Below are positions 63,258 through 64,000 of a DNA stretch of 64,000 bases, in pieces. The notes beneath the pieces are model-generated. The model saw nothing but the letters and a program-made list of their open reading frames with translations. It had not been told where the DNA came from and searched no databases. Origin of the DNA: Escherichia coli (GTDB lineage Bacteria; Pseudomonadota; Gammaproteobacteria; Enterobacterales; Enterobacteriaceae); assembly GCF_003334355.1 (NCBI RefSeq), contig NZ_QOWP01000001.1. One strand, given 5' to 3'. Every line of letters starts with the position of its first letter. The stretch's first letter is position 1. The translations under genes were made by a program, and so were the position numbers.

Positions 63258-63737
63258 ATGGAATCGCTCTCAGAGAGAACCTCAACAGGCTACCAGCAAA
63301 TCCATGACGGTATTATTCACCTGGTCGATAGCGCCCGGACGGAAACGGTACGTAGCGTTAACGCGCTGATGACCGCGACATACTGGGAAATTGGCCGACG
63401 AATTGTCGAATTTGAACAAGGTGGCGAGGCCAGGGCTGCGTATGGTGCGCAGCTAATCAAGCGACAATCAAAGGATTTAAGTCTAAGGTATAAGCGTGGG
63501 TTCTCTGCAAAAAACTTACGCCAAATGAGGCTTTTTTACCTCTTTTTTCAACATGTTGAAATTCGCCAGACAGTGTCTGGCGAATTAACACCATTGGGAA
63601 TTCCGCAGACACCATCTGCAGAATTCCCATCGGCAAAGATTTGGCAGACGCTGTCTGCCAAATTGAGAGGCTGTTTGATATTTCCACAGCTTTTGTATTG
63701 CATCTCCTATTTTCGGTTTGTATATTCATGCAAATAA
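63258..63737 (+). pseudogene. Truncated DUF1016/YhcG-family gene (N-terminal domain only; PD-(D/E)XK nuclease domain absent)
   Basis: ORF track 63258..63737 (159 aa); residues ~30-100 (LMTATYWEIGRRIVEFEQGG...GFSAKNLRQMRLFY) resemble the DUF1016 N-terminal domain; recognisable similarity stops at the triple repeat near 63560-63670, then an unrelated tail and stop. Confidence 0.5.
63561..63669. repeat. Three tandem degenerate ~38-bp units each with a palindromic core GCAGAC-N(1-5)-GTCTGC followed by AATT
   Basis: Units: ttcGCCAGACAGTGTCTGGCGAATTaacaccattgggaa / ttcCGCAGACACCATCTGCAGAATTcccatcggcaaaga / tttGGCAGACGCTGTCTGCCAAATTgagaggctgtttga. Confidence 0.7.
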
Positions 63738-63754
63738 ACGAAGGAAAGTTGCCA

Positions 63755-64000
63755 TGATTTACATTGAACAGCTTGAATTAATCCATAAAAGTGGTGATGT
63801 GTTGTATCCAGTAAAAATAACCAGAAAATCATCAGGAAAAACTGCCTTCCACCTTGTTCCATTCGGCTTAAATAAGACTCACGACCTTCTAGAGGTGGAA
63901 GATGCTTCAGAAGCAATTCGGCTGGTGATTGATGAACGTCATTCCATTCGCTGCAGTACACTTACAGCAACTATTACGAATAAAAAGGGCAAGCGAATTA
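63755..64000 (+). CDS. Hypothetical protein, N-terminal fragment (at least 81 codons), gene continues beyond window end
   Basis: ATG at 63755 preceded by AAGGAAAG at -13 to -6; reads MIYIEQLELIHKSGDVLYPVKITRKSSGKTAFHLVPFGLNKTHDLLEVEDASEAIRLVIDERHSIRCSTLTATITNKKGKRI with no stop before position 64000; no signal peptide; not recognised. Confidence 0.5.

Follow-up and report, generated by a model that had tools for sequence, protein, structure and literature searches.

In-frame palindromes in the domain linker of yhcG belong to a family-wide element of DUF1016 genes under nucleic-acid-level constraint

Repetitive extragenic palindromes (REPs), their composite bacterial interspersed mosaic elements (BIMEs) and the REP-associated tyrosine transposases (RAYTs) form a system in which short, hairpin-capable palindromes are tied to, and match, one nuclease gene, vary between lineages and keep their symmetry. 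parS sites can lie inside the parB/spo0J coding sequence, where a palindromic protein site is co-inherited with the gene of its own protein. Rickettsia palindromic elements (RPEs, ∼ 100–150 bp) are in-frame and have been scattered over many unrelated genes by recent insertion; here palindromic DNA is tolerated within genes and adds a peptide segment at a permissive place. In integron attC sites, IS200/IS605 ends and CTX attP, which act as folded single-stranded hairpins, structure is conserved above sequence and the arms show compensatory changes. The operators of C-proteins and of other restriction or defence systems combine dyad symmetry and fixed half-site spacing with the control of a toxic nuclease, and in the Type III toxin–antitoxin system ToxI/ToxN tandem repeats of ∼ 36–39 nt precede a nuclease-coding segment on one transcript. 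We describe an array of three palindromes in yhcG, a DUF1016-family gene at the end of a 64 000-nt stretch of Escherichia coli DNA (contig NZ_QOWP01000001.1, here called the window), that recalls each of these systems in some of the features just named; recognition by YhcG itself is putative, and an operator-like copy 54–117 nt 5′ of the start codon is found at a few loci. The array consists of three tandem in-frame copies of a palindrome that is present throughout the DUF1016/YhcG family and is under nucleic-acid-level constraint.

The window ends with gltB–gltD followed by an open reading frame (ORF) at 63258..63737. A repeat search of the window found three 27-nt direct-repeat copies at 63560–63586, 63599–63625 and 63638–63664, with start-to-start spacings of 39 + 39 nt (13 codons each). 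Copies 2 and 3 are 74% identical to copy 1 and each copy is itself palindromic; no strand is assigned to the units. Unit 1 (63560..63586; AATTCGCCAGACA-G-TGTCTGGCGAATT) has perfect 13-nt arms and encodes (E)IRQTVSGEL. Unit 2 (63595..63629, core 63599–63625; TGGGAATTCCGCAGA-CACCA-TCTGCAGAATTCCCA) encodes IPQTPSAEF and has 15-nt arms with one C:A mismatch; in the K-12 allele G replaces A at this position, which extends the arms to 16 nt. Unit 3 (63638..63664; ATTTGGCAGAC-GCT-GTCTGCCAAAT) encodes IWQTLSAK and has perfect 11-nt arms. In intact alleles its arms reach 18 nt (L002 4533–4571), at L007 1836–1874 with zero mismatches, and in the window allele foreign DNA substitutes the outer right arm.

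A first-pass annotation of the window, made from its letters, had reported a threefold palindrome-bearing repeat here, in agreement with the repeat search. The unit of ∼ 38 bp given there is right as to repetition, but the period is 39 nt and the term tandem repeat fits only the palindromic cores; Tandem Repeats Finder (score 30) made no call at the array because the 12-nt linkers between the units are unrelated. The proposed core GCAGAC-spacer-GTCTGC is found exactly in unit 3, but reads CCAGAC..GTCTGG in unit 1 and GCAGAC..ATCTGC in unit 2. AATT was given on the 3′ side, but AATT or ATT borders each unit on both sides. The position was given correctly: the YhcG-homologous part of the ORF ends with the array, and the next ORF starts at 63755, 91 bp past unit 3. 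The array was also rightly set apart from REP, ERIC, RSA and box C, being intragenic, confined to yhcG within the window and without an Rfam match, although no scan used the ERIC, RSA and box C consensus sequences as such. The motif CAGAC-N(1–5)-GTCTG occurs three times in the window (0.25 expected; 0 of 100 shuffles reached three); two of the matches fall in the array and the other is a chance occurrence.

The host gene is a truncated yhcG, from the family described by Pfam PF17761 and PF06250. Pfam DUF1016_N matches residues 19–111 of the window ORF (hmmscan, E = 4.2e-26), extending over unit 1, and the ORF is 98–100% identical to the 5′ part of annotated yhcG. Megablast alignment with intact alleles stops at query position 564, that is window position 63663, in the last bases of unit 3. 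The Pfam match, megablast and the allele alignment together place the yhcG 5′ part, comprising the DUF1016 N-terminal domain and linker (codons 1–135), at 63258..63663 on the + strand. It is followed by a read-through tail (63664..63737, +; ∼ 24 codons, LRGCLIFPQLLYCISYFRFVYSCK*) that enters imported DNA and has no YhcG homology. The window gene therefore ends without the C-terminal PD-(D/E)xK nuclease domain, and the Prokaryotic Genome Annotation Pipeline (PGAP) labels it a pseudogene 'missing C-terminus'. Megablast finds this arrangement in 721 of 5426 complete E. coli genomes. Elsewhere, in thousands of E. coli genomes, yhcG is intact and encodes a 375-aa 'PDDEXK nuclease domain-containing protein', with gltD and nanQ, or yhcF in K-12, as neighbours. 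The translation of the intact allele contains IRQTVSGEL, IPQTPSAEF and IWQTLSAKS in frame, followed by FPLPWSTYVRLL and then the nuclease domain. Of the 5426 genomes, 2698 cover the full length of a 201-nt probe that takes in the array and intact sequence downstream of it. The array is thus an in-frame coding segment of intact DUF1016 genes, which runs against the interpretation in the first-pass annotation. Since the units are an in-frame coding part of intact YhcG, the array did not disrupt the gene by slippage either, as had also been proposed.

Intact E. coli alleles carry a fourth palindrome, ATTCTGCAGACA-G-TGTCTGCAGAAT, which starts 15 nt past the stop codon and is rendered as ILQTLSGES in a read-through variant. 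No unit lies upstream of E. coli yhcG. Comparison of E. coli alleles at unit 1 shows AATT-CGC-CAGACA..TGTCTG-GCG-AATT replaced by AATT-GTG-CAGACA..TGTCTG-CAC-AATT. Three positions are altered on both arms of this allele pair and the symmetry is still perfect.

The palindrome is not confined to E. coli. A protein search identified 24 528 DUF1016 relatives among 1.84 billion cluster representatives. Within the best 150 of these, the unit peptide '..Q[TSA].S...' is present at least once in 73 and at least twice in 31, and many homologues carry it 1–4 times. At the DNA level, 80 DUF1016 loci were sampled by C-terminal peptide patterns only, with one genome per species and the choice blind to the palindrome; 77 were analysable. 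The 80 loci represent Proteobacteria, Acidobacteria, Chloroflexota, Planctomycetota, Verrucomicrobia, Nitrospirae, Bacteroidetes, Elusimicrobia and a Candidatus Methanoperedens metagenome-assembled genome (MAG). Palindromes with arms of ≥ 11 nt and ≤ 1 mismatch occur at 3.38 per kb in a 330-nt linker window versus 0.074 per kb elsewhere, a 46-fold enrichment. At a looser threshold all 77 loci have at least one unit at the homologous position, invariably in the same reading frame, and the first of these is homologous in position and frame to unit 1 of the window. Throughout, the units lie between the N-terminal domain and the PD-(D/E)xK domain.

The same holds for more distant members. Eight of eight plasmid genes with 30–41% identity have an in-frame palindrome at residues 91–103, directly before the LSWSHY/LPWGHN motif. 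Their hosts are Rhodococcus, Pseudarthrobacter, Leptolyngbya, Hymenobacter, Phocaeicola, Sulfurimonas, Moraxella and E. coli (an IncHI plasmid), representing Actinomycetota, Cyanobacteriota, Bacteroidota, Campylobacterota and Gammaproteobacteria. These palindromes are entirely different in sequence (for example CAATTGTCGTGAC-GCT-GTCACGACAATTG and CCATTGCGTCCGC-ACT-GCGGACGCAATTG) and the encoded peptides are unrelated (IVVTLSRQL, FVQQVVGQI, IASALRTQL). The gene from ∼ 913 of the Candidatus Methanoperedens MAG locus (L028) encodes a DUF1016 protein 59% identical to E. coli YhcG and has the same palindrome (ATTTCGCAGATAGTGTCTGCGAAAT), which suggests a recent cross-domain transfer.

Conservation applies to the dyad symmetry and to neither the peptide nor the exact sequence. 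The helix comprises 11 pairs, at positions 2–12 from the centre, around a fixed 3-nt centre, and single units have perfect arms of 11–13 nt. In closer homologues the consensus is A-W-W-nnn-CAGAC-RSY-GTCTG-nnn-W-W-T. The centre is 3 nt long without exception in ∼ 140 units and in the distant subfamilies, and reads R-S-Y in all 132 units examined for pairing. In these 132 units positions 2–8 are 92–98% Watson–Crick paired, with several pair types at each, and the sequence-free nnn positions are 92–96% paired. Position 2 is C-G in 126 and position 12 A-T in 130 of the 132; past position 12 pairing is random. In an 87-unit alignment 94.8% of cells are paired, a figure inflated by the units having been found partly by palindromy, compared with 72.1% in shuffles (none of 500 as high) and 22–47% with slid partners. 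All 11 pairs show double changes (186 double-change cells versus 45 expected).

These changes follow base complementarity and not amino-acid similarity: Q is replaced by E, P or S, paired with G/A to R, G or E. Paired core variants include GAGAC/GTCTC, CCGAC/GTCGG, TCGAC/GTCGA, CCATC/GATGG and CAATC/GATTG, and they alter the peptide non-conservatively (e.g. ILPSVMVK). Codon choice in the units departs from that in the rest of the same ORFs, with ATT used for 91% of Ile (31% elsewhere), TCT for 82% of Ser (12%) and CAG for 97% of Gln (60%). Inside the units NAA occurs 108 times and NAG never, and Thr is encoded exclusively by ACA or ACG. This codon skew therefore rules out a purely protein-level repeat.

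Copies outside the gene were sought in viral contigs and metagenomes with a pattern of 16 fixed bases, ATTnnnCAGACnnnGTCTGnnnAAT. The viral contigs gave 40 matches, 24 of them inside or adjoining DUF1016 ORFs and two more in remnants. Among the metagenomic matches listed (at least 131), 96 are inside DUF1016 ORFs, six within 3 kb of one and 29 without one; those outside DUF1016 ORFs are almost all intergenic and not in-frame in other families. Some extragenic copies match the unit in the neighbouring gene. In Pseudarthrobacter a copy 54 nt 5′ of the start codon is nearly identical to the in-gene unit, and loci L193 and L202 have gene-matched copies 70 and 117 nt 5′ of the start. In the tandem paralogues L073/L077 the intergenic copy 5′ of one gene equals the in-gene unit of the adjacent paralogue. 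Units after the stop codon were found only in E. coli and at locus L048. Further extragenic settings are Type I restriction-modification and AAA-ATPase/PDDEXK_9 neighbourhoods, a position beside a large serine recombinase (L087) and the end of an insertion in an IS3 transposase gene (L129). At L116 a 1.3-kb two-gene cassette is bracketed by a pair of identical unit-bearing copies (at 4740 and 6062; ≥ 65 bp), and the pair looks like attachment sites or a duplicated cassette boundary.

Several arrangements at these and similar loci are recorded here as separate observations. The L116 cassette resembles a toxin–antitoxin pair and lies between an AAA-ATPase/PDDEXK_9 gene and a tyrosine integrase. 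On the L073/L077 contig (CAIWHK010000007.1) the two paralogues are surrounded by repeated modules in which a YhcG-type palindrome is followed by ..AAAATTCCAAG and, 40–60 nt on, by the GC-rich palindrome GACTTGCGCCGGCGCAAGTC, of which there are at least five copies; an AbiEi-like gene is divergently transcribed from one module. Two gut-metagenome contigs without a DUF1016 gene (L141 4565–4613 and L156 4501–4549) carry a perfect 49-nt palindrome, GGCGGTTCACAAATTAGTCAGACAGTGTCTGACTAATTTGTGAACCGCC, with a YhcG-type core, near hsdS/integrase, an AAA-ATPase/PDDEXK_9 gene and a recurrent helix–turn–helix protein of 229–248 aa. On the Moraxella osloensis plasmid pNP7-5 (L254 306–330, 352–376 and 1381–1405) another palindrome, AAACTGTGGCAAATTGCCACACTTT, has two copies upstream of the DUF1016 gene and one downstream, adjoining a ParB/RepB gene; it may serve partition or regulation and have nothing to do with the in-gene unit.

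The AlphaFold2 model of YhcG has a mean predicted local distance difference test (pLDDT) score of 79.7. Its sole internal stretch of very low confidence, residues 103–121 (pLDDT < 50), corresponds to units 1 and 2, and unit 3 is placed in a moderately confident helix that runs into the conserved FPLPWS segment. According to the model the units occupy a permissive linker, since units 1 and 2 coincide with the very-low-pLDDT stretch. A sequence search of the PDB with YhcG found no relative. In Foldseek the nuclease core alone was matched, with the structure-specific nucleases NucS/EndoMS and Bax1 as nearest hits and Card1/Can2 also found. PADLOC classes YhcG as a candidate single-gene defence system, PDC-S02. 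Among its models PDLC04797–04830 and the DUF1016 cluster representatives, many are fragments that end at about residue 100–110 or start at about 130–150. The edges of such fragments coincide with the palindromes, where genes, assemblies or gene calls often break.

In E. coli the array is a rearrangement-prone point of yhcG and is polymorphic at one to three units, which answers the question, raised in the first-pass annotation, whether copy number differs between strains. In O26 an 80-nt frameshifting deletion removes units 2 and 3, and in 349-aa alleles a 78-nt in-frame deletion removes the same two units. The junction with the prophage-derived fragment of the window lies inside the right arm of unit 3. 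A diverged mosaic block of ∼ 150 bp (window 63500–63655 versus L005 2900–3060) covers the last helix of the N-domain and the units in alleles that are nearly identical elsewhere; its right edge is also in the right arm of unit 3. Because post-stop units are rare, we discarded the idea that the nuclease segment between unit 3 and such a unit is generally inverted or excised. In E. coli Stbl4, a K-12 derivative, a near-perfect palindrome of 120 bp (L003 3488–3607; 60-nt arms, one mismatch) truncates yhcG and adjoins a TonB-receptor fragment and a ribosomal RNA operon. It is probably a scar of strain construction or rearrangement.

The imported segment in the window is ∼ 470 bp long and substitutes the 3′ part of yhcG and the post-stop palindrome. 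The prophage-derived fragment occupies 63668..64000 (+) and extends ∼ 70 bp beyond the window. From 63668 onwards, ∼ 405 bp of the E. coli segment is ∼ 85% identical (blastn) to loci in Enterobacter cloacae and Yersinia canariae, both at prophage edges. With yhcG homology ending at 63663 in unit 3 and foreign DNA present from 63668, the array does mark an insertion boundary, as the first-pass annotation had offered among its candidate roles. The fragment carries an ORF of 101 aa (WP_000639208.1; start 63755, +, continuing to L001 9960). In Enterobacter this ORF lies at the edge of a lambdoid prophage remnant, and in Yersinia it adjoins a phage integrase beside icd. Neither donor locus has a YhcG-type palindrome, including the region upstream of the ORF. 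PGAP names the product 'transposase'; searches of Pfam, NCBIfam and PHROG assigned it to no family and found no transposase signature, the family is an orphan found in Enterobacterales only, and the name looks unsupported. Of 5426 E. coli genomes 726 contain the fragment, REL606 and BL21 among them. Because it is single-copy and confined to the yhcG locus, the replacement is one old event and not an active element. An insertion sequence whose transposase targets the palindrome was rejected, the 101-aa ORF having no family match and the single-copy fragment coming from a prophage edge. Two nucleotides after the stop codon of the ORF is a hairpin with a 10-bp stem, GGCACAGAGC..GCTCTGTGCC (L001 9962–10001, ∼ 60 bp past the window end). 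It lies within the last ∼ 60 bp of the insert, which have no match in the donor loci, and could be a terminator or a junction remnant.

We give an even chance to the reading that the palindrome is a cis-acting DNA site able to adopt a hairpin or cruciform form and kept in the gene for co-inheritance, most probably recognized by the gene's own product for autoregulation or self-recognition. The palindrome would act at the DNA level, and by being held physically within the gene the site would be inherited jointly with the nuclease. The likeliest partner would be the encoded protein itself, a candidate defence nuclease that in structure comes closest to structure-specific nucleases. We speculate, for example, that the newly made N-terminal part binds the site just downstream and limits the synthesis or activity of the nuclease part. 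Units could be gained or lost by slippage or by unequal exchange between units, and hairpin formation would explain the deletions and junctions at the array.

Several points weigh against this reading. An extragenic copy is found in only ∼ 5% of genes and a classical promoter operator therefore cannot be the general role. Some 20–25% of the pattern matches lie outside DUF1016 genes, some of them in Type I restriction-modification or integrase neighbourhoods; a part of these may be unrelated hairpins or may hint at another partner. The identity of a trans-acting factor that recognizes the palindrome is pure inference. The nnn triplets differ between the units of one gene and are symmetric within each unit; a dimer on duplex DNA would not require this pattern, which fits intrastrand pairing or homogenization of the arms by template switching. 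Arms of 11–13 bp extrude poorly as cruciforms in vivo. Finally, the inflation noted above affects the pairing percentage; neither the 46-fold enrichment nor the codon tests share this bias.

A more far-reaching version, which we hold only tentatively and think somewhat less probable than not, treats DUF1016/YhcG genes as modules of a nuclease and its cognate palindrome. The nuclease of each subfamily would recognize its own linker site, as duplex, hairpin or cruciform, for autoregulation in cis or for discrimination of self from non-self in phage defence. Copies outside the gene, whether in promoters, behind stop codons or in defence islands, would then serve the same system as additional sites.

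An unlikely alternative is that the palindromes act in mRNA, where hairpins would pause ribosomes, block exonucleases or serve processing or binding, and so tune the ratio of full-length nuclease to N-terminal part. Folding prediction for the 161-nt region in the intact allele gives a very stable set of three hairpins (−65.9 kcal/mol versus −34.7 ± 4.4 for shuffles, z = −7.15), compensatory changes are seen at each of the stem pairs, and the elements invariably lie within the transcript at a domain boundary. However, G·U pairs make up only ∼ 1% of cells (∼ 10 of 946), and the sense strand has 21 mismatches of the G:T type versus 33 of the A:C type. DNA-level constraint is favoured over RNA-level constraint because, unlike in conserved RNA helices, G·U is scarce and G:T-type mismatches are no commoner than A:C-type ones. 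Matched copies 5′ of start codons and between genes, outside the transcribed gene body, also argue against a role in mRNA. The element belongs to no Rfam family: a cmscan of the array against Rfam 15 (E ≤ 1) returned only a meaningless microRNA match (21 bits versus a gathering score of 100). A promoter and terminator scan gave no signal at the array. We also weighed CTCTTTTTTC, upstream of the hairpin, as a −1 frameshift signal and decided against it, as there is no canonical in-frame heptamer, the distance to the hairpin is 11–12 nt and the sequence is not conserved in GC-rich homologues.

It is quite improbable that the units are functionless quasi-palindromes in a permissive linker, kept perfect by template-switch mutation or intra-palindrome conversion and hitch-hiking with the gene. 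Template switching at quasipalindromes is a known mutational hotspot mechanism in E. coli. Symmetry as high at the sequence-free nnn positions as elsewhere is what such a process would leave, and the linker is disordered and tolerant, with deletions and junctions showing that the palindromes are mutable. A neutral, deletion-prone feature should nevertheless be gone from many lineages, and it is present in 77 of 77 sampled and 8 of 8 distant genes, down to 30% protein identity, with the same position, frame, geometry and 3-nt centre. Nor would neutrality account for the constrained loop (R-S-Y) and closing pair (C-G at position 2), or for the matched copies outside the gene.

Very doubtful, too, is a small mobile or recombinase-targeted palindromic element, similar to REPs or miniature inverted-repeat transposable elements or serving as an attachment or cassette-boundary site of defence islands, that colonized DUF1016 genes. 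The intergenic units at L087, L129, L116 and in Type I restriction-modification neighbourhoods would fit such an element, as would the two independent E. coli junctions in unit 3 and the unit after the stop codon. The homologous codon position and frame throughout DUF1016 genes point instead to common descent and not to repeated invasion. In-frame occurrence is essentially restricted to the family, each locus has few copies, the palindrome is missing from the loci that match the E. coli insert, and with ∼ 16 fixed bases in the pattern some extragenic matches may be unrelated hairpins.

Selection of the peptide repeat I-x-Q-T-x-S-[GA]-[EKQ]-[FL], with the DNA palindrome as a by-product of codon choice, is hardly credible. 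The Pfam DUF1016_N model does cover the first unit, the peptide recurs in many homologues and AlphaFold places unit 3 in a helix. The extreme preference for ATT and TCT and the absence of NAG, substitutions that obey base complementarity, the unrelated peptides of distant members and the existence of non-coding copies all contradict it. An operator array for the downstream 101-aa ORF, proposed in the first-pass annotation, has next to no probability as an evolved function: the array does lie 91–195 bp 5′ of this ORF, but it occurs without it in 2698 genomes, the ORF was imported later with foreign DNA that starts past the array, and in its other hosts the ORF has no upstream palindromes.

The DUF1016/YhcG proteins are among the commonest uncharacterized nuclease families and are frequent in restriction-modification loci, plasmids and integrative elements. 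A symmetric DNA site in the coding sequence is a first concrete handle on the control of, or recognition by, these nucleases. From Actinomycetota to an archaeal Candidatus Methanoperedens MAG the site keeps its codon position, and it overrides normal codon usage. It is a clean natural example of dual coding, for a peptide and for a DNA structure, with covariation at the codon level. It accounts for yhcG so often being truncated or polymorphic at the array. It also calls for caution in annotation, since fragments named 'DUF1016 N-terminal domain-containing protein' originate at a fragile palindrome.

In the literature searched on DUF1016 or yhcG we found no relevant description of a palindrome or hairpin. 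The yhcG element is a gene-embedded palindromic cis-element that differs from REP–RAYT systems, parS in parB, RPEs and hairpin recombination sites, from each in a defining respect. REPs are extragenic and imperfect, occur in tens to hundreds of copies and flank the gene of the RAYT, an HUH/Y1 protein; the yhcG palindrome is perfect, low-copy and in-frame within the gene, and the enzyme is a PD-(D/E)xK nuclease. Compared with parS it has no partition function or partner ATPase, holds its position in a domain linker across the family and has perfect arms of 11–13 bp. Unlike RPEs, the units are only ∼ 27 bp long, ancient and found in one gene family at one homologous position. The extrahelical bases and R/L-box pattern of attC, IS200/IS605 ends and CTX attP are missing, the centre is fixed and the element lies within coding sequence; no integron integrase or Y1 (HUH) transposase is adjacent to the yhcG locus. 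In C-protein operators the site is in the promoter, whereas the universal copy here is in the gene and its symmetry covers positions that are unconserved in sequence. ToxI repeats act as RNA and are non-coding direct repeats of near-identical sequence; the yhcG units are coding, 74% identical to unit 1, palindromic and without the G·U tolerance typical of RNA. If the module reading were true, DUF1016 genes would offer an intragenic counterpart of REP–RAYT or parS–parB, and a new way for a DNA site and protein coding to share the same bases across phyla.

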